Source: Candidatus Methylomirabilis oxygeniifera
Lineage (GTDB): Bacteria; Methylomirabilota; Methylomirabilia; Methylomirabilales; Methylomirabilaceae
Direction: 5' to 3'
Length of the DNA stretch: 32,000 nucleotides
Assembly (NCBI GenBank): GCA_000091165.1
Contig: FP565575.1
Span: 1,860,001-1,892,000 of the forward strand
The position numbers were made by a program, and so were the translations under genes. A model generated the notes under the pieces. The model searched no databases and was not told the origin of the DNA. It saw only the letters and a list, made by a program, of their open reading frames with translations. Of this stretch, positions 3,170-32,000 are shown one piece after another. Numbering within the stretch: position 1 is the first letter of the stretch; each line of letters begins with the position of its first letter.

Positions 3170-4207
3170 ATGGGAACGACAAAGCAGCCCGCGAGGTCGG
3201 CGGCGATCTTTATTCTTCTGATAACGTTGGCGGGGTGCGCCGGCACCGATGGCGCCTCTTCTCGGTCAGCCACACCGATAATCACGCCAGGTCCCGCTCT
3301 CGGCACACCAGGCGCAGGACTCGAGCATGGACTCCCCGGTCCTACGGGTCCCAAGAAGCGGATCACGGTCGCCAAATTCGATGCAGCCGGTGCCTTCATG
3401 GCCCACTATGGCGGCTGGGATATTGGTGGCGGCCTCGCGGCTCAACTGACCACCGCTCTGGTGAATTCTGGTCACTTCATCGTCGTCGAGCGGGCCGAAC
3501 TGACCCCCGTACTGCGTGAGCAGGATATGGCCATGCAGAAGATCGTCTCCCAAGAGACCGCCGCCCAGGTGGGCCGGGTGCTTGGCGCCCAGCTTCTCGT
3601 TGCAGGATCGGTGACCGAGTTCGATCAGGGGGCCGGCGGCGGGAGCTTGCATCTGGGGGTTGGGGCGGCTTCAGGGCTGCTGGGCGGTCTCATTGGAGCC
3701 CAAACTACCAGGGGTGTGGTCGGGATGGATGTGCGTGTCATCGATACTACCACGGGCCAAGTGGTGCAGTCGCACCGGGTCGAGGCGAACACATCGCAAA
3801 GCGGGATCTCGGCGGACATCAACGTGCAGCAGGTAACCTTCGGCGGCGATGCGTTCAACAAGACCGTGCTCGGACAGGCGACGCGGCGGGCCATCGAGCA
3901 GGCCGTGATGTTCGTCATCCAATCGACGGAACAGACGCCGTGGACCGGTCGTATTGTTGACGTGGCAGGCGACCAGGTGTACATCAACGCGGGTGCCGGT
4001 GCGGGCGTGAAGCCGGGCGACCGCTTCACCGTTGCGGCAGTCGTGCGGGAGCTCAGAGATCCCGAGTCAGGCGCTCTCTTGGGAATCGTGGAAAACAGGC
4101 GAGGCGAGATCGAAGTGGTCAGCGTCCAGGAAAAGTTCAGCGTGGCCAAGAGGCGTACGCCCTTTCAGGCTGCCCGGGGGGACCTTGTGAAGCTCCCTGG
4201 GCGCTGA
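3170..4207 (+). CDS. CsgG/HfaB-family outer-membrane lipoprotein with a C-terminal beta-rich extension
   Basis: AGGAGG SD; lipobox LAG|C with Cys at residue 23. Block-by-block resemblance to E. coli CsgG: KRITVAKFD, LTTALVNSGHFIVVERAELTPVLREQ, AQLLVAGSVTEFD, and VGMDVRVIDTTTGQVV. An extra ~90 aa C-terminal domain (GRIVDVAGDQVYINAGAGAGVKPGDRF) follows. Confidence 0.85.
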   Translation: MGTTKQPARSAAIFILLITLAGCAGTDGASSRSATPIITPGPALGTPGAGLEHGLPGPTGPKKRITVAKFDAAGAFMAHYGGWDIGGGLAAQLTTALVNSGHFIVVERAELTPVLREQDMAMQKIVSQETAAQVGRVLGAQLLVAGSVTEFDQGAGGGSLHLGVGAASGLLGGLIGAQTTRGVVGMDVRVIDTTTGQVVQSHRVEANTSQSGISADINVQQVTFGGDAFNKTVLGQATRRAIEQAVMFVIQSTEQTPWTGRIVDVAGDQVYINAGAGAGVKPGDRFTVAAVVRELRDPESGALLGIVENRRGEIEVVSVQEKFSVAKRRTPFQAARGDLVKLPGR

Positions 4208-4248
4208 GTATTAAGAGTTTCGATGCTCCATAGAAAGGAGGTGATACC

Positions 4249-4596
4249 ATGAAGCGATGGCCGACTTTCACTCCGACGCTTACGATCCTGGTGGCCTTCA
4301 CGGAGTTGAGCGCTGCTCAGGAGAGGAAGGCCTGGGAGAAGCCAGTGGAGAAGCCGACACAAGGCAAGCTTCCTTTTGTCGGGAAGCAGCAGCTGATGAC
4401 CGGCAAGGTGACACAGGCAAATCCAACGACCAACACCTTTACCGTCATGGCTAAGGGCCAAATGGTCACCTTCAACGGTGCAAACCTGAACGCTCTCCCC
4501 AGGGTTGGGGAGATTATAGAGATCACCTACACCCAGACCTCCGGCGGGCCCATGCAAGCGACGACCATCAATAGCACGAAAAGCAACACTTTCTAA
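4249..4596 (+). CDS. small secreted T/N/Q/G-rich beta protein (unknown function)
   Basis: The 11-nt SD AAGGAGGTGAT (4235-4245) is fully complementary to the canonical 16S 3' tail. Sec signal with predicted cleavage SAA|QE after residue 23. Lies 41 nt downstream of the csgG-like gene. Confidence 0.75.
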   Translation: MKRWPTFTPTLTILVAFTELSAAQERKAWEKPVEKPTQGKLPFVGKQQLMTGKVTQANPTTNTFTVMAKGQMVTFNGANLNALPRVGEIIEITYTQTSGGPMQATTINSTKSNTF

Positions 4597-6450: not shown

Positions 6451-6830
6451 ATCCGCGACGTCCTCCGTCAGTACCTTGCATCCCACCGCTGGCAGCGACT
6501 GCGCCAATGGGGCGCCGAGACGGCGGAGCGCCTCTGGCTCAAGACCGAGGCGGATCTCCAGCGCCTGCTCGACGAGGTGCGGGCTGGTATGACATCGGAC
6601 TATATACTAAGGAAATGGCTGCTAACCTGGAACGGGCCGAACAATCCCTTGGCGCCGCTCAATTTCTCCCATCTCGATAGCCTTGCTGTTGTCTCTTCCG
6701 GTCATGATCATCCAGCGTCCGCTTTCCCGCTGAGGAAACACGCGGCTTTCATTCCATAAATAGGCTTGTATTTCTATCAATAAGCATCATAATGTCACTG
6801 TAATATAATATCAGTAACAATGGAGAGTGA

Positions 6831-15227: not shown

Positions 15228-15857
15228 ATGATCTCCGCACGGGAAACACTCGAACGCCTTCGTGAGGGAAACCGCCGTTTCGCCTCGAACGTGCGGAGTC
15301 TCGATACGCTTCTGAGCCAGACCAGACGTGGTGAGCTCCAGACAGGTCAGCGGCCTGTTGCAATCGTACTTGGCTGTTCAGATTCACGTGTCCCAGCAGA
15401 GATCGTATTCGACCAGGGGCTCGGCGATCTCTTCGTCATCCGGGTTGCCGGCAATATCGTCGCCCCGTGCCTGGTCGGGAGTGTCGAGTTCGCTGCTGCT
15501 CAGTTTGGAACACGTCTGGTAGTTGTACTTGGCCATTCCCGGTGCAGCGCTATTCTGGCCACATTAGAGGCGCTGAGGCAGCCTACGATGATCCATTCCC
15601 ACAATCTGTACTCCATCATCGATCATATCCGCCCGTCAGTCGAGATCCTCCTCAGCGCTGAACTCCAGCACGATACGAACGACCTTATTCGAGATGCGGT
15701 TCGGGCTAACGTCCTCGCCTCTGCCAACCACCTGCGGCACGGCTCTGAGCTTCTTGAGAAGCTAATCCTCAATGACGGCCTCGTTGTCGTTGGCGCTGAG
15801 TACTCCCTCGAGACAGGTCTGGTTGAATTCTTTGATGGCGTACCGGATGCCGACTGA
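15228..15857 (+). CDS. beta-class carbonic anhydrase
   Basis: Zinc and active-site motifs CSDSRV, VIRVAGN and GHSRC, plus the N-terminal LREGNRRF typical of beta-CAs. Confidence 0.9.
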   Translation: MISARETLERLREGNRRFASNVRSLDTLLSQTRRGELQTGQRPVAIVLGCSDSRVPAEIVFDQGLGDLFVIRVAGNIVAPCLVGSVEFAAAQFGTRLVVVLGHSRCSAILATLEALRQPTMIHSHNLYSIIDHIRPSVEILLSAELQHDTNDLIRDAVRANVLASANHLRHGSELLEKLILNDGLVVVGAEYSLETGLVEFFDGVPDAD

Positions 15858-15859
15858 CT

Positions 15860-16200
15860 CCTGATCGTCCTTGCGCAGCGCTGAAGCACCGCAATGCGCG
15901 CAGACCGGCATCGGCATTTTCGCGTGATGGCATGATCTAAATGTCATATCCATGGTGGCGCAAGGATAGCCGTGGGCGGCCAGCGCATTGGCGCCGGCGA
16001 GAAAGAATCTAACCTTCTCGTCGACTCAGGCGTGTCACATGTCTCTGTAGTCTTCGTTCAGCATCGTGTCGCCTGCTCAGGGACGCGACTTCCCTGGTCA
16101 GCGGCCAGACCAGTCCAATTCGTTCCGCGGGAGTTCCGGGAACGGGAGCCTCTTTCTGCCGGTCGGCCATCCGGTATGTGGCTGTACGTTGCTTGTTCAT
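15860..16200 (-). pseudogene. nucleotidyltransferase-fold gene, frameshifted and 3'-truncated
   Basis: From the ATG at 16200 the reading is MNKQRT...TPAERIGLVWPLTREVASLSRRHDAERRLQRHVTRLSRREG, ending at a stop at 16009. A different frame continues VRFFLAGANALAAHGYPCATMDMTF, a degenerate hGG...DxD motif. That reading runs into the convergent carbonic anhydrase 3' end. Confidence 0.5.
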
Positions 16201-16261
16201 GGGGTCACAATACGCTTCCGGAAAAAGGGAATAAAGGCTGACCGCACCTCCAACGTGAGCG

Positions 16262-16603
16262 TCAGCCGCGTGCGCGGAGCGAAGCAGAGCGCGCGTTGGC
16301 TGGACGCGGTGTTGGGCGCAGCCTTGCTCGCCCCACCTTGATGGGGACTTGAAGGCCCACGCGCGGCGCCGGTAATCCACGCAACAATCCTTCAACGCTG
16401 AGGTCTTCGTCTACAGCCGGCCAGTGGATTCCGTATCCGCCACCGGCGATCTTCCATTTTGCGCGCTGTTGGGGTGTTGCATGCAATAACCGAGGATACC
16501 AAGCTAAAGGCACAATAATGGTTCGGCCGTCAAGCAACTCGACGCGGAGCGTGTCTCGCGTGCAGCGCACACTCTTAACTCGTTGACCCGGTTGCATGTC
16601 CAT
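16262..16603 (-). CDS. DUF2442 family protein
   Basis: VKSVRCTRDTLRVELLDGRTIIVPLAWYPRLLHATPQQRAKWKIAGGGYGIHWPAVDEDLSVEGLL matches the DUF2442 pattern. ATG at 16603 with AAGGTGG 10 nt upstream; it overlaps the upstream gene by 29 nt. Confidence 0.8.
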   Translation of the reverse strand: MDMQPGQRVKSVRCTRDTLRVELLDGRTIIVPLAWYPRLLHATPQQRAKWKIAGGGYGIHWPAVDEDLSVEGLLRGLPAPRVGLQVPIKVGRARLRPTPRPANARSASLRARG

Positions 16604-16832
16604 ACTCTTTGTACCACCTTTCAAGCAGTTGAGTTTGATGCTCGCGTACCACCTTTTCGATTTTGCGCAACTCTCTGGCGTTGAAGCCGAGGTTGCTGGC
16701 GAGTGCTATTGGATTGAGCCAGAACTTGGCGGATAAGTCATCTCGGTCAACATGAACGTGAGGCGGCTCATCGATCAAGTCGTGGCCGTAAAAGTAGAAT
16801 CGGTACGGTCCGATTCGTAGCACCGTGGGCAT
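16575..16832 (-). CDS. DUF4160 family protein
   Basis: MPTVLRIGPYRFYFYGHDLIDEPPHVHV...AKFWLNPI is the hallmark DUF4160 N-terminus. It is paired with a DUF2442 gene, the common arrangement. Confidence 0.85.
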   Translation of the reverse strand: MPTVLRIGPYRFYFYGHDLIDEPPHVHVDRDDLSAKFWLNPIALASNLGFNARELRKIEKVVREHQTQLLERWYKEYGHATGSTS

Positions 16833-16838
16833 ACGGGA

Positions 16839-16868
16839 ATATTACTGGTAGTGTAGACAGTATGTCAA
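16839..16868 (-). promoter_or_regulatory. sigma70-like promoter for DUF4160/DUF2442, implying a leaderless mRNA
   Basis: On the minus strand: -35 TTGACA (16868-16863), an 18-nt spacer, then -10 TAATAT (16844-16839). Only 6 nt separate the -10 from the ATG at 16832, and there is no SD. Confidence 0.4.
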
Positions 16869-16902
16869 ACGTAAGTGGAGTACCCAACAATAATTAGAAT
16901 GA

Positions 16903-16931
16903 TCCGCATAAGATGCGGAGTTTCGTTTTCC
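16903..16931. terminator. short hairpin with T-rich tail
   Basis: TCCGCAT (16903-09), AAG, ATGCGGA (16913-19), followed on the plus strand by GTTTCGTTTTCC. It sits between the intI remnant and the DUF4160 promoter. The functional strand is ambiguous. Confidence 0.35.
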
Positions 16932-17062
16932 TGTCGTCATATCACACCTTAGGAGCGCCGCACCGTGGCACACGCATTTCCTTATTTTCCGCCGGTTGCG
17001 TGCGATCCAGCAGTGTATCACGGCTTCGTATGCGGATCGGCATAATAACCTCCTTGCTGACC

Positions 17063-17437
17063 TTATAGCCCGTCAACCGGACTGCGAACGCCCACTGGTC
17101 CACGGTTGAGGACATGGGTGTACATCATCGTTGTCTTTACGTCGCTATGGCCGAGGAGTTCCTGGACAGGTCGAATATCGTAGCCGCCTTCAAGCACGTG
17201 CGTGGCAAATGCCGGGTGGCGCTTCCCGTGGAAGAAGATGAACCGCTTGATCCACCCAATATAGGTATCTTCTGTCCGGCGGCTGTAGTGGCGAGCGCGA
17301 ATCGCCAGGCGCACCTGGTCAAGGAGCTTGGGCTTCGCGGGAGAGGGTGACGAAGGCGTGAGCACGGCAGTAGTCCACCTGCCAGCATGCTGATGCGAGA
17401 GGTCCTGGATGACCCCCGTTGCAGTGGGATTGCCCAT
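17063..17437 (-). pseudogene. intI: integron integrase with in-frame internal deletion
   Basis: Residues 38-76 ([39 protein letters not shown]) resemble the IntI N-terminus. They are joined directly to [48 protein letters not shown], the IntI C-terminus including the GVRSP(L/V)D end. About 200+ aa of catalytic core are missing, with the junction near 17209. The AAGGAGGA SD is retained. Confidence 0.8.
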
Positions 17438-17530
17438 ACAGTCCTCCTTTCTGAAAGGAAGGCTCAGTTACGTGTCATACGCCAAACCTGAGAGGCGGTC
17501 AAGGATTTTCGTTGTGCGATTGCTTTTTCC

Positions 17531-17558
17531 TTGACACTCGTGTCAACCAAGCTATGGT
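17531..17558 (+). promoter_or_regulatory. candidate alr promoter embedded in a perfect palindrome
   Basis: -35 TTGACA (17531-36), a 16-nt spacer, then -10 TATGGT (17553-58). TTGACAC-TC-GTGTCAA (17531-46) is a perfect 7-2-7 palindrome, so it also presents TTGACA on the minus strand toward intI. Confidence 0.35.
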
Positions 17559-17622
17559 TGAACGCAGGCGTATCCGCGATGGGATAGAAGCTATTTGACC
17601 TTTAGAGACAGAGTAGAAATGA

Positions 17623-18842: not shown

Positions 18843-18929
18843 GCGAGAGTGGCGGAATGGCAGACGCGCTGGACTTAGGATCCAGTCCGCCTTTGGCGGA
18901 TGGGGGTTCAAGTCCCCCCTCTCGCACCA
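18843..18929 (+). tRNA. tRNA-Leu (anticodon UAG), CCA encoded
   Basis: Hand-folded cloverleaf. Acceptor GCGAGAG pairs with CTCTCGC. Anticodon stem CTGGA/TCCAG carries loop CTTAGGA. The long variable arm is CCGCC-TTT-GGCGG. The T arm is GGGGG-TTCAAGT-CCCCC, followed by discriminator A and CCA. Confidence 0.9.
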
Positions 18930-18958
18930 CAAATCCGACATCTAATTCCGAGATACGT

Positions 18959-20254
18959 ATGAAAGTAGATATCGAAGAGATCAGCAGCACCAAACGCGCA
19001 CTCCGAGTCGAATTACCCCCTGAAAGTCTCTCAGAGAAGTTGGAGACGGCATATCTGCGCCTTGCGAAGAAGGCTCGCCTCCCAGGCTTCCGTCCAGGTA
19101 AGATCCCGCGGGATCTCCTGCGTTCGCGTTTCAGGGATGAAGCCAAACAGGAGGCCCTCAGAGAACTCATCCCGGAAAGCTATGGTCAAGCGCTGAAGGA
19201 GTCCAATCTGGATCCGATAAGCGAACCGACGTTGGAAGAGATGGTCTGCGAGGAGGGTAAGCCTCTAAGCTACCGGGCTTGCTTTGACGTGAGGCCCGCG
19301 CTACAGCTTTCGGGCTACACGGGAGTTGAGGTCTACAAGGAAAAGCTTGAAGTAGCGGACACTGAGGTCGATCAAGCCGTGGAGTATCTCCGGGAGCGGA
19401 CGGCAGAGTTCGTACCGATGGATGGCTGGCCCGCTCTACAGGAAGACCTCCTGGTGGTAGACTACGAAGGCTTTACCGGCGGTAAACCGCTCAAGGGCGT
19501 AAGCGGTCAAAACACCTCGATCCTTCTCGGCGCCCACCGGTTCATCCCAGAATTTGAGACCCAACTCCATGGCCTCAAGAAGGGCGATCTTAAAGAGTTC
19601 TCTATGGAGTTCCCGAACGATTACGGACGACGGGAGTTGGCGGGAAAGCGGGTACTGTTCAAGGTCACGGTCAAAGAGGTGAAGAAAAAGCAGGTACCGT
19701 CGCCGGATGATAATTTCGCGAAATCGGTGGCCGGCTGCGAAGATATCCAGGCTCTCAGAGAGAAGATCAAGCAGGATCTACTCGCGCATAAGGAGCGGGA
19801 GCAGGTGGTCCGTCTCAAGGACCAGATCCTGGACAAACTGCGCACTGCCCATCCGTTCGATCCTCCGGAATCGTTGGTGGATGCAGAGGTCGAGGCTATC
19901 CTCGCTGATCTGAGGCGGAGCGCCGGCAGCCGTAAGCCCACCGCTGCTCCGAGCGAAGACGAGGCGACGCTGGCCAAGGCGAGAGAACTCGCCTCAAAAC
20001 GGGTTCAGGACTCTCTCTTGCTGGAAACGGTGGCGAAGCAGGAAGGACTTGAGGTGTCGGAGGACGAATTGAATAAAGAGGTCGAGTCGGCCGCTGCCAC
20101 CCTGAATCGTAAACCGGAGGCCCTCCGCGACATGTTGGAGCGAGAAGGACGGATTGAGGCCTTCCGAACACGCTTACTGGAGGGAAAGGCGCTCGATCTT
20201 CTGTATAAGCAGGCCAACATTGTGGAAGGGAAAAATCTCGTAACCCTCGCCTGA
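18959..20254 (+). CDS. tig: trigger factor
   Basis: MKVDIEEISSTKRALRVELP start; ribosome-binding motif GFRPGKIPR; FKBP-like middle domain. The longer ORF-track start at 18857 would read through the tRNA and is rejected. Confidence 0.93.
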   Translation: MKVDIEEISSTKRALRVELPPESLSEKLETAYLRLAKKARLPGFRPGKIPRDLLRSRFRDEAKQEALRELIPESYGQALKESNLDPISEPTLEEMVCEEGKPLSYRACFDVRPALQLSGYTGVEVYKEKLEVADTEVDQAVEYLRERTAEFVPMDGWPALQEDLLVVDYEGFTGGKPLKGVSGQNTSILLGAHRFIPEFETQLHGLKKGDLKEFSMEFPNDYGRRELAGKRVLFKVTVKEVKKKQVPSPDDNFAKSVAGCEDIQALREKIKQDLLAHKEREQVVRLKDQILDKLRTAHPFDPPESLVDAEVEAILADLRRSAGSRKPTAAPSEDEATLAKARELASKRVQDSLLLETVAKQEGLEVSEDELNKEVESAAATLNRKPEALRDMLEREGRIEAFRTRLLEGKALDLLYKQANIVEGKNLVTLA

Positions 20255-29790: not shown

Positions 29791-29970
29791 TAGTTTCGTG
29801 ACGGGCAGGAGGGATCGCTTTGTCACACGTTACAACACTCCAAGGCGACCCACTTACTCGATGGCGGCCCCGACATCCGGACGGTCCAAGAGTTGCTTGG
29901 CCATCGGGATGTGAGCAGGACGATGATCTATGCGCAAACCACGCGTCTCCTTGGAACTACTCGGAGGTAG
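29791..29970 (+). pseudogene. tyrosine recombinase C-terminal fragment (decayed)
   Basis: The frame from 29821 reads [41 protein letters not shown]. The consensus is [38 protein letters not shown]. Here the catalytic Arg is replaced by Gln and there is no N-terminal portion or start codon. Confidence 0.7.
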
Positions 29971-29972
29971 CG

Positions 29973-30158
29973 ATGAAACAGCGTCAGAGTGATCCGGTCA
30001 TCGATGAGATCCGGGATGTGCGCCGCCGCATCTCAGCGCGCGTTGCGCATGATCCCGCCCGATTAGTGGCCCACTACATGGAGCTACAGAAACAGGACCA
30101 GGATCGGCTGATTGAGACCGAGAAAACCGCCCAGCGCATCGATCAGTCGGCCGCCTAA
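29973..30158 (+). CDS. small hypothetical protein (61 aa)
   Basis: ATG with GGAGG 5 nt upstream. The DPVIDEIRDVRRRISARVAHDPARLVAHYMELQK pattern is one I recall from small orphan genes in TA-rich regions. The longer 29820 start in the ORF track is a shadow of the recombinase fragment. Confidence 0.55.
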   Translation: MKQRQSDPVIDEIRDVRRRISARVAHDPARLVAHYMELQKQDQDRLIETEKTAQRIDQSAA

Positions 30159-30267
30159 CTTTGCGCCCCAGCCAGACGCTCGCTCCACTTGTACGGCTGA
30201 GCGTGGTTGTTATACCCCGCCTGTGCCGATGTCGTAGCGAAGCGAATCTTCGTAAGGTGAGTAATCG

Positions 30268-30302: not shown

Positions 30303-30596
30303 ATGTTCTTGATAAAACTCCTGCCCGAATTTACCGCATGGCTGGACGGTCTGTCCGATGCGTCGGTGCGCGGGGTGGTCGCGGCGCGCATCAAGCGTCT
30401 GGAGCGCGGCTTGATGGGGGACGTGGAGCCGGTCGGCGACGGGGTGTCGGAGTTGCGCATTCATTTCGGTGCGGGCTGGCGCATGTATTTCGTGCAGCGT
30501 GACGGTCAGTTGATTGTGTTGCTCGTCGGTGGCTCCAAGCGTACCCAAAAGACTGACATCAAGCGCGCCAAGGCATTGGCGGCGCTCTTGGACTAA
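30303..30596 (+). CDS. higB: addiction-module killer protein (HigB/RelE-superfamily toxin)
   Basis: FTAWLDGL...RIKRLERGLMGDVEPVGDGVSELRIHFGAGWRMYF...LIVLLVGGSKRTQKTDI is the classic pattern of this killer-protein family. The toxin-first gene order is as in higBA. Confidence 0.88.
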   Translation: MFLIKLLPEFTAWLDGLSDASVRGVVAARIKRLERGLMGDVEPVGDGVSELRIHFGAGWRMYFVQRDGQLIVLLVGGSKRTQKTDIKRAKALAALLD

Positions 30597-30611
30597 GTGA
30601 AGGAGATGACT

Positions 30612-30917
30612 ATGATCCAACGTATCAAAGTAGCTGACTTACCCGAGTTTGATGCCGCGCCGTATCTCGACAGCGAGGCGGCGATTGCGGCTTACCTGAC
30701 GGATATTCTGGAAGCGAACGATTCGGCTTTGCTGGCGTCGGCATTGGGAGACATCGCTCGGGCGCGTGGCATGAGCGAGATTGCCAAGGCATCCGGACTG
30801 ACCCGCGAAGCTTTGTACAAGGCGCTCAGACCCAATGCGAAACCGCGCTACGACACCATCGCGAAGGTCTGTGCGGCGCTCGGGGTGCGGCTGGTGGCAC
30901 AGGCGATTCATGCGTGA
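30612..30917 (+). CDS. higA: addiction-module antidote protein, HigA family (HTH)
   Basis: FDAAPYLDSEAAIAAYL...IARARGMSEIAKASGLTREALYKAL...PRYDTIAKVCAALGVRL. The ATG at 30612 has AGGAG 6 nt upstream. In-frame alternatives are the GTG at 30597 and the ATG at 30606. Confidence 0.87.
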   Translation: MIQRIKVADLPEFDAAPYLDSEAAIAAYLTDILEANDSALLASALGDIARARGMSEIAKASGLTREALYKALRPNAKPRYDTIAKVCAALGVRLVAQAIHA

Positions 30918-31393
30918 GCCTCCAAAGTTGACCGCCCGAGGAGATAGGCGCCACAATGGTGCCTAATGAACGGCTCAACCAGGCAACTACCCGACCGCAA
31001 TGAATGGCTGAATGCCTCCACGCTTTCCCTCGAAAAGGCAGTCCAGACGCCTGCTTCGCCACGAGAAGCCACGAAAAGCGCTTGACCGCCTTCCAGATTT
31101 GGCGTAATAGATCGTTAGTTACCTTTCTTTCCCTTGGAGAGGTGTGTCTGCCGCTTGTCTGCCAGGCAGGGAGGATAGCATGGGGCAATCTCACTAAAAC
31201 GGGGGCAATTCATTGTCCTGCCCTTCCAGGTCATCGAGCAGGTGGACGAGCTGCACGCCGAAAGGCCAGAGGACACGTCACCACAAGGATTGCTTTTTGA
31301 CGAACGCGGGCTATCGTCTGCGTCGCTCAGTTCAAGTCGTAAGACGGCTGCACACGGCTTGCCTGATGAACAGTACCTACACTACCGGGGTCG

Positions 31394-31866: not shown

Positions 31867-32000
31867 CTCAAATTCGGACACTATGAATACGGTCAAACGG
31901 CTTGACCGCCCACGGCTGCCATGCGAGAGTCTCTTGGGATTCCGGCTGGTGGTCGCCGGCTGATGTTCCAAGCCGGTCTCGATAACAAGGCTGCCGGCGC

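Follow-up and report, generated by a model that had tools for sequence, protein, structure and literature searches.

A probable internally deleted integron integrase remnant in a small chromosomal integron of inverted layout in Candidatus Methylomirabilis oxygeniifera

We analyzed a 32,000-nucleotide stretch of the genome of Candidatus Methylomirabilis oxygeniifera (contig FP565575.1, positions 1,860,001 to 1,892,000; hereafter "the window," whose first letter is position 1 of all coordinates below), and we find that a 124-codon open reading frame (ORF) on its minus strand is, with high probability, the non-functional remnant (intI') of an integron integrase gene. The remnant belongs, on this reading, to a small, sedentary chromosomal integron of inverted layout that occupies the interval between the phosphoenolpyruvate (PEP) carboxylase and carbonic anhydrase genes on one side and alr on the other. 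The locus displays an internal deletion of the integrase gene, an attI, an attC, cassette boundaries, and decay of the gene in its orthologues. The gene order RuBisCO-CbbX-PEP carboxylase-carbonic anhydrase-(variable segment)-alr-tig-clpP-clpX was also found in the Methylomirabilis assemblies L084 to L089, and intI', attI, attC, and the cassette genes share the minus strand, where the array is 3' of intI. Read along that strand, the element would run from a promoter-like box (17503-17474) through the Shine-Dalgarno (SD) sequence and intI' (17437-17063) and a 175-bp attI region to the core G|TTGGGT (16888-16882), beyond which would follow cassette 1, with its DUF4160 and DUF2442 genes and its attC, and then a decayed and truncated cassette 2. 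The integrase gene itself is represented by two features:

17063 to 17437, minus strand: intI', predicted integron integrase pseudogene of 124 codons with an ATG start and the junction ...GKRHP(A)|FATH... at about 17210
17442 to 17449, minus strand: Shine-Dalgarno sequence AAGGAGGA, 4 nt 5' of the intI' ATG, read from the sequence

An initial annotation of this DNA had described the ORF as an integron integrase (IntI) deleted internally and in frame, without the central catalytic core and the IntI-specific insertion, and our comparisons bear this out. The top NCBIfam family for the ORF was the integron integrase family TIGR02249 (112.7 bits in two stretches, below the full-protein cut-off of 265 bits), where the C-terminal amino acids 74 to 124 correspond to positions 266 to 315 of a model of 315. 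In Pfam, the N-terminal SAM-like domain was matched by amino acids 38 to 76 (profile positions 1 to 39 of 85) and the phage-integrase domain by amino acids 65 to 110 (positions 125 to 169 of 172), so that most of both profiles is missing from the ORF. Alignment with VchIntIA of Vibrio cholerae (PDB 2a3v) matched residues 6 to 44 and 259 to 318 only. The nearest intact relative that we found, L004, is 352 amino acids long: Amino acids 1 to 76 of the ORF are 74% identical to its residues 1 to 76, and amino acids 70 to 124 are 78% identical to its residues 299 to 352. At the DNA level, these are two blocks of 80% and 78% identity that lie 688 nt apart in L004. Both L004 and a second intact relative, L005, score far above the cut-off of TIGR02249 (470 and 475 bits), and their flanks do not match the alr locus.

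The alignment to intact IntI, which the annotation had proposed as a check, thus shows IntI residues 1 to 76 joined to the last 48 residues across a gap of about 228 codons, in frame (residues 77 to 304 in L004 numbering). With these codons went Arg-I, the catalytic Lys, and the HxxR box (His-II/Arg-II), leaving an incomplete catalytic set of which only the GH.. (His-III) and Tyr105 segment is kept. The IntI-specific ...RKYPNA..W.WQW... insertion is present in L004 and L005 and lacking from the window ORF. Frame, ATG, and the SD sequence AAGGAGGA are kept, as the annotation had said and as direct reading of the sequence shows.

Xer models also match the C-terminal 40 residues of the ORF, which could mean that it is a generic fragment of a Xer-type or phage tyrosine recombinase; a related doubt is that the junction is a mis-assembly. 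We regard both as very improbable. The Xer matches reach 51 to 55 bits against cut-offs of 330 to 335, which is neither full-length nor at the XerC/XerD equivalog level, whereas the integron integrase model scores twofold and covers the N-terminal piece too; judged by these scores, the termini of the ORF are nearer to IntI than to XerC/D, and the generic Xer fragment without IntI termini that the annotation had named as a refutation is not what we found. Identity to an intact IntI gene is ~78 to 80% at the nucleotide level on both sides of the gap, and the attI and attC context is present. The same junction, moreover, occurs in three independent assemblies (the window and the related loci L001 and L089) and is therefore not an assembly artefact.

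The two intact IntI genes nearest to the Methylomirabilis remnant come from one metagenome-assembled genome (L004 and L005; DATMXF01, "Patescibacteria group bacterium SMAG_U13113"). In addition, the 90% cluster of the Methylomirabilis CbbX includes a CbbX from a record labelled Patescibacteria, and the label or the binning looks wrong.

The remaining parts of the integron lie on both sides of intI':

17456 to 17517, minus strand: 5' platform segment, conserved throughout the related loci, also in L084, in which almost all of intI is lost
16889 to 17062, minus strand: attI region, from the intI' stop to the crossover point
16882 to 16888, minus strand: attI core GTTGGGT (GTTRRRY), 175 bp 3' of the intI stop, with the crossover between G16888 and T16887
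16942 to 17043, minus strand: 33-codon small ORF MPIRIRSRDTLLDRTQPAENKEMRVPRCGAPKV with its own SD, GGAGG, between the intI' stop and attI
16254 to 16887, minus strand: cassette 1, with DUF4160 (16575-16832) and DUF2442 (16262-16624), assigned by Pfam, with boundaries set by comparison
16248 to 16317, minus strand: attC of cassette 1, R'' GCCCAAC ... R' GTTGGAG, folding imperfectly into a hairpin with bulges
15875 to 16253, minus strand: cassette 2 remnant, with a 63-codon ORF (16009-16200) and a DUF6036/AbiEii-type nucleotidyltransferase pseudogene

As in other integrons, an attI adjoins intI and carries a GTTRRRY core at which cassettes are inserted. The attI region contains a conserved box, ATGCCGATCCGCATA..GCCGTGATA, and inverted repeats at 16901-16916 and 17023-17038; the box recurs 3' of the intact L005 intI (GTTATGCCGATCCGCATAAGA.GCCGTGATA), where a GTTGGG also stands about as far from the gene. 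The small ORF in this region is kept in L001 and in two further related loci, L002 and L084, and its frame is shifted in L089 by a 1-nt difference after codon 7. After the intact L005 intI, only its first 9 codons are conserved, and these coincide with the conserved DNA box, so that the conserved thing may be the DNA. In class 1 integrons, attI1 carries ORF-11, a short ORF that has an SD and immediately precedes the first cassette; the small ORF here is alike in being a short, SD-bearing frame in the attI region and differs in showing no sequence similarity to it.

Cassette 1 begins at this core. Its DUF4160/DUF2442 pair resembles a toxin-antitoxin module, and the DUF4160 protein is weakly DhiT-like. 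The first 6 nt of the cassette, TTGGGT, are complementary to the R'' box of the same cassette, GCCCAAC (6 of 7 positions), and the attC folds at -20.6 kcal/mol as the bottom strand versus -16.7 kcal/mol as the top strand (z = -2.0). In cassette 2, the nucleotidyltransferase frame opens with an ATG at 16064 and stops after 9 codons; L001 has an intact version of the gene, which matches DUF6036/AbiEii, and L084 a broken one. Cassette 2 is itself cut off at 15875, a point that 18 nt separate from the stop of the carbonic anhydrase gene. The attC sites were called with a home-made scan (R''/R' motifs plus folding) that has a background of ~2.4 matches per 32 kb, and a MAFFT alignment of eight hand-picked attC sites gave no common register at the 3' core. 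The cassette boundaries, the attC, and the nucleotidyltransferase that is broken here and intact in L001 confirm the suspicion of the initial annotation that the neighboring minus-strand genes are cassette cargo. Its reservation, namely that they lie downstream of intI rather than across attI, does not hold, because these genes are cassettes inserted at a downstream attI. Likewise, its phrase "former integron platform" is apt for the integrase, which is predicted to be dead, but not for the platform, which is not merely former: attI, one complete attC, and cassettes persist.

Comparison with related genomes places the insertion point precisely. Five related Methylomirabilis contigs keep the same platform, with different cassettes that start exactly at G|TT. 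The window segment 17517-16883 is 91.7% identical to L001, 88.4% to L002, and 93.8% to L089, the alignment ending at GTTGGGT each time; homology to L001, L002, L084, and L089 breaks exactly at the attI core, after which different cassettes follow. L001 has an extra 537-bp segment exactly at the core (one gene plus a 67-nt hairpin site), beyond which the window sequence 16888-15875 resumes at 93.6% identity. In L002, L084, and L089, unrelated genes come after the same G|TT, and the L084 sequence meets that of the window again at 16253, where the next site has its G|TT and the attC its R' boundary, and continues at 96% identity down to 14900. The combination of R''/R' cores, an imperfect hairpin, and an R'' complementary to the start of its own cassette at 6 to 7 of 7 positions was found in the window, L001, L002, and L084: The pairs are TTAGGC/GCCTAAC and TTAGAC/GTCTAAC in L002 and TTCGCT/AGCGAAC in L084 (all 7/7), and TTGGGC/GCCCAAT in L001 (6/7). 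Relative to shuffled sequences, the attC folds of L001 and L002 have z scores of -4.4 and -6.8.

With attI 175 bp 3' of the intI stop and cassettes that point the same way as intI, the layout is that of the "inverted integron-integrase" type. Among the relatives, both layouts occur: The intact-IntI loci L031 and L077 of Methylomirabilota/Rokubacteria have five attC-like matches downstream of intI and none upstream, and betaproteobacterial relatives have the classical upstream arrangement, as seen with the same crude scan and its background. An intact intI at the same locus was not found in a scan of genome contigs, and a scan of metagenome contigs with a 25-mer common to all five platforms returned L089 only. 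The comparison with related strains that the annotation had suggested thus recovered the same platform, but in place of an intact integron it showed intI deleted by various lesions.

Two of these arrays also contain group II intron sequence. In L002 (~3600-4290, plus strand), an ORF-less group II intron (Rfam D1-D4, domain V/VI) begins inside an attC of the array, in cassette orientation, and a near-identical 3' fragment of it stands after the first attC of L084 (~6600-6700, minus strand). A group IIC-attC intron has been listed for Ca. M. oxyfera (PMC3001079); in a full-text literature search, this was the sole integron-focused paper naming the organism, and no paper describing this Methylomirabilis integron was found.

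The classical orientation would instead place attI upstream, between intI and alr, where the initial annotation had pointed to a perfect palindrome and to a GTTRRRY match. There is indeed a GTTGAAC at 17557-17563 and an inverted repeat at 17531-17546, and one could suppose that attI once lay here, that the array across it was lost, and that the downstream genes are unrelated cargo. We consider this highly unlikely. The repeat is not a perfect palindrome: It consists of two 7-nt arms around a 2-nt non-symmetric center (TTGACAC tc GTGTCAA), and an inverted repeat of such size in ~185 bp is not far from chance expectation. Both motifs fall outside the conserved platform, whose homology to L001 and L002 ends at 17517/17509, and the segment that holds them is 98% identical in L084 and L089, continuous with alr. 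The repeat overlaps a sigma-70-like TTGACA-16-TATGGT that faces alr, and the variation in cassettes falls entirely at 16888, downstream of intI. The repeat and the GTTGAAC would thus belong to the promoter region of alr, not to an attI.

The sequence at the junction suggests how the deletion arose. Intact relatives read GGC AAG CGC CAY CCN TCG GAA (GKRHPSE) on the N-terminal side and TTC CGC CAT TCG TTT GCC (FRHSFA) on the C-terminal side, and the window reads CGC CAC CCG GCA TTT GCC, with TCA as the junction codon in L001. The junction sits at a short repeat in the same frame, CGCCAY(CCN)TCG, which encodes RH(P)S in "GKRHPSEM" and in "FRHSFATH". Most likely, slippage or microhomology-mediated joining of these two same-frame repeats would have produced a deletion of ~684 bp that removed residues 77 to 304. 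Because the repeats share one frame, a deletion between them is in frame automatically, and the frame would have been kept without selection. L002 carries a different in-frame junction (GKR|ATCHTFRHS), at an AAR-CGS (KR) present on both sides, and a further locus, L003, a third one. Same-frame repeats in IntI (RHP/RHS and FLTHL/FATHL, in the N-terminal domain and box II) would offer a simple account of why in-frame, internally deleted integrases are frequent.

Within the genus, intI has decayed by at least four different deletions, and the copies that share one deletion have decayed further. L089 has the identical junction (CGCCACCCGGCATTTGCC) and, in addition, a CAG>TAG nonsense mutation at codon 41. 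L001 shares this junction as well and shows 11 amino-acid changes private to it, among them a change of the catalytic Tyr to Cys and changes at other invariant positions. In L084 to L088, the sequence corresponding to window 17127-17455 is lost, with the SD, the start codon, and 104 codons; the last 20 codons persist, as do the 60-bp 5' box and the attI region. The window copy has changes of its own at conserved positions (L81V, T89P, and I104M). Given the nonsense codon in L089, the loss of the Tyr in L001, and the larger deletions, we interpret the stump as a pseudogene, predicted to be unable to catalyse recombination and to be drifting.

Some observations weigh against this picture of a dead integrase in an integron whose deletion was repeat-mediated. 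The window has one complete attC only, with a modest folding z score (-2.0), and the attC calls depend on the home-made scan and its ~2.4 background matches per 32 kb. In place of the true ancestral sequence, the repeat-mediated mechanism leans on relatives that are 74 to 80% identical. The ORF, its ATG, and its strong SD are intact in the window, and comparison of the window with L001 gives a ratio of non-synonymous to synonymous substitution rates (dN/dS) of 0.41, from 12 synonymous versus 16 non-synonymous changes, i.e., below 1 and a sign of possible residual constraint, although few changes were counted and the method overstates the synonymous share. By our own estimate, an open frame of 375 nt survives ~28 substitutions by chance fairly often.

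The intact frame with its ATG and SD and the low dN/dS are also what would be expected if the 124-amino-acid fusion were a selected mini-protein, either a regulator that binds attI/attC or a dominant-negative partner of an IntI acting in trans, or if the frame were kept against polarity into co-transcribed cassettes. The presence of three or more in-frame deletion alleles within one genus would fit as well, as would the at least 120 clusters of short in-frame IntI proteins in metagenomes, one of them a 138-amino-acid lineage with a single junction at 81 to 96% identity. We nevertheless judge this alternative improbable. The same allele bears the nonsense codon 41 in L089, the catalytic Tyr and several invariant residues have changed in L001, and L084 to L088 have dispensed with SD, start, and 104 codons and kept the platform. 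The fusion would moreover comprise ~1.5 helices of the N-terminal domain and the last helices of the catalytic domain, which by comparison with 2a3v probably form no autonomous fold. The in-frame status itself we rejected as evidence of selection: A search with fused ends as the query retrieves in-frame fusions only, a bias of ascertainment, and orthologues carry a stop or a larger deletion. Separately, a candidate hairpin that would sequester the SD in the intI' leader (17425-17480, minus strand; CCUUCCUUU pairing with AAAGGAGG) folded no better than shuffled sequence (z = -0.31) and was dropped; the pairing motif (CCUUCCUUU/AAAGGAGG) recurs in L001, L002, and L089.

The reasoning on same-frame repeats also suits the short IntI proteins of metagenomes. 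The best 120 matches to the mini-ORF were all 83 to 217 amino acids long, with both Pfam ends present. Their junctions vary: The spacing between fixed anchors ranges from 13 to 134 amino acids, versus 243 in intact IntI, and clusters of junctions lie at RH|S, RHP|xATH, and F(L/A)TH|LLE. Because the junctions differ, the short IntI proteins are not one conserved family. The initial annotation had held that a short gene conserved as a family across many genomes would refute it; many short IntI proteins do exist, but with differing junctions, and the orthologues that share the junction decay. The genes L091 and L092, which encode such short IntI proteins, have co-oriented genes downstream. The 138-amino-acid lineage (P0031, P0032, P0033, P0045, P0057, and P0118; L091) has one junction, ..AFLTHVDCHTFRHS.., over 81 to 96% identity, and is a second in-frame stump that persists through divergence, like the Methylomirabilis allele.

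The platforms of the window, L001, and L089 have one junction and are 91.5 to 93.9% identical, and the cassettes that adjoin their attI differ: The window has the DUF4160/DUF2442 pair, L001 an extra gene of 149 to 166 amino acids before the same pair, and L089 a 180-amino-acid gene followed by a HicAB-like pair. L084, whose allele probably derives from the shared dead-integrase junction, has yet other cassettes next to attI, and all keep cassette 2 or its first 35 nt distally. Such a pattern is what one insertion after another at attI would be expected to leave. Provided that the junction was inherited from a common ancestor, the insertions postdate the death of the integrase, which in turn implies either an integrase acting in trans or the swapping of arrays through homologous recombination. 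The identities among the platforms form a star-like pattern (93.4% between L089 and L002, for instance), so that recombination may also have taken place. For later cassette changes by insertion, an integrase would have to be supplied in trans, and the cassettes may be transcribed by read-through from the retained 5' box. A search for an intact IntI in the genome of the window yielded none among the best 120 matches to the L004 IntI, a result that says nothing on more distant integrases. We therefore put forward only tentatively, as possible and somewhat doubtful, a scenario in which the attI platform is still used after the death of its own integrase: A trans-acting integrase would serve it, the 5' box and attI would be selected as an integrase-less expression site, and intI would be repeatedly deleted between same-frame peptide repeats. 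If true, cassette turnover after integrase loss would be a natural case of trans-servicing of an integrase-less platform, an idea proposed for attC clusters without an integron integrase (CALINs). The attI-proximal 180-amino-acid protein of L089 shows, as a side observation, weak similarity to beta-carbonic anhydrases (Pro_CA, E = 9e-4).

The element is ordinary in kind, given that inverted integrons and dead intI genes are already known. Integrons of Xanthomonas linked to ilvD, reportedly described by Gillings and co-workers in 2005, are said to carry independently inactivated intI genes. The Methylomirabilis locus shares with such "pseudo-integrons" a fixed chromosomal locus across a genus, independent lesions in close relatives, and lineage-specific arrays. 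It differs in the kind of lesion, with large internal deletions (of which two or three keep the frame) in place of a majority of frameshifts and stops, and in that carriers of one deletion allele differ in their attI-proximal cassettes. More generally, pseudogenes make up about a third of intI genes, and inactivation has often struck close relatives independently (Nemergut et al. 2008, PMC2426708). With the inverted integrons of the Treponema denticola type (PMC3607928, PMC4889954), the locus has in common that it is chromosomal and sedentary, carries non-resistance cargo, and has the same layout; here, however, the host belongs to NC10/Methylomirabilota, the integrase is predicted to be dead, and the array is tiny (one complete cassette and a remnant). 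The likeness seen here is one of layout, and the inverted integron-integrase group was found to be paraphyletic (Cury et al. 2016, PMC4889954). CALINs are similar in having cassettes without a working integrase nearby, and recognisable intI pseudogenes stand beside 15 of 279 of them (Cury et al. 2016, PMC4889954). In contrast to a CALIN, attI and both ends of intI persist here, and the single complete attC in 15.8-17.1 kb, with an intI remnant adjoining it, is below the two attC sites of the definition. What the analysis documents is a fixed-locus chromosomal integron in Methylomirabilis (NC10), a genus of nitrite-dependent methane oxidisers, with the consequence for annotation in this clade that attI and cassettes should be sought 3' of intI. 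A modest point of interest is that cassettes differ among genomes with the same dead-integrase allele.

The 5' platform segment contains CTTGACCGCC (17503-17494) and, 17 nt further, TATGAC (17479-17474), which together make it a candidate promoter for intI and, by read-through, perhaps also for the cassettes. This TTGACC-17-TATGAC box upstream of intI' is retained in all deletion alleles; its -10 element is without the final T, and a consensus promoter scan did not call it. The same scan called a TTGACA-18-TAATAT (16868-16839) within the leader of cassette 1. The decamer CTTGACCGCC is overrepresented in the window, with 11 matches at no more than one mismatch versus 3.0 expected, a count reached in 0 of 100 shuffles. 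Three exact copies and one near-exact copy (17494-17503, minus strand; 31081-31090, 31901-31910, and 30927-30936, plus strand) all stand at integron-related places, and the decamer may be a -35 element or a protein-binding site.

Further remnants of an integron platform lie ~12 kb from the locus. At 29821-29967 (plus strand) lies a degenerate C-terminal fragment of IntI (TIGR02249, 59.5 bits), and 1.2 kb downstream on the same strand, at 31007-31212, a copy of the 5' platform box with the SD and ~11 initial codons of intI, which over 44 nt shares 93% identity with L003. A candidate attC at 30152-30214 did not fold (z = -0.16), and we do not claim it. Small genes of toxin-antitoxin type stand near these remnants, including a RelE/ParE toxin (30303-30596) and its antidote (30597-30917).

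Around 17515, the window is without a segment of ~70 bp that L084 and L089 have between the 5' end of the platform and the upstream region of alr, and that L001 has in part. The carbonic anhydrase gene adjoining the array is unstable: It is intact in the window and in L084, absent in L001, and cut to about half its length in L089. The positions concerned in this comparison, which takes in the 180-amino-acid cassette gene of L089, are 15228-15857 (plus strand) in the window, 2511-2555 in L001, and 2552 and 3298-3840 in L089. On the far side of alr, between it and the trigger factor gene, we found a tRNA gene (18843-18926, plus strand; Rfam, 60 bits) that overlaps the 5' end of the ORF at 18857-20254, so that the trigger factor gene probably starts later; in L084 the call is 431 amino acids long.

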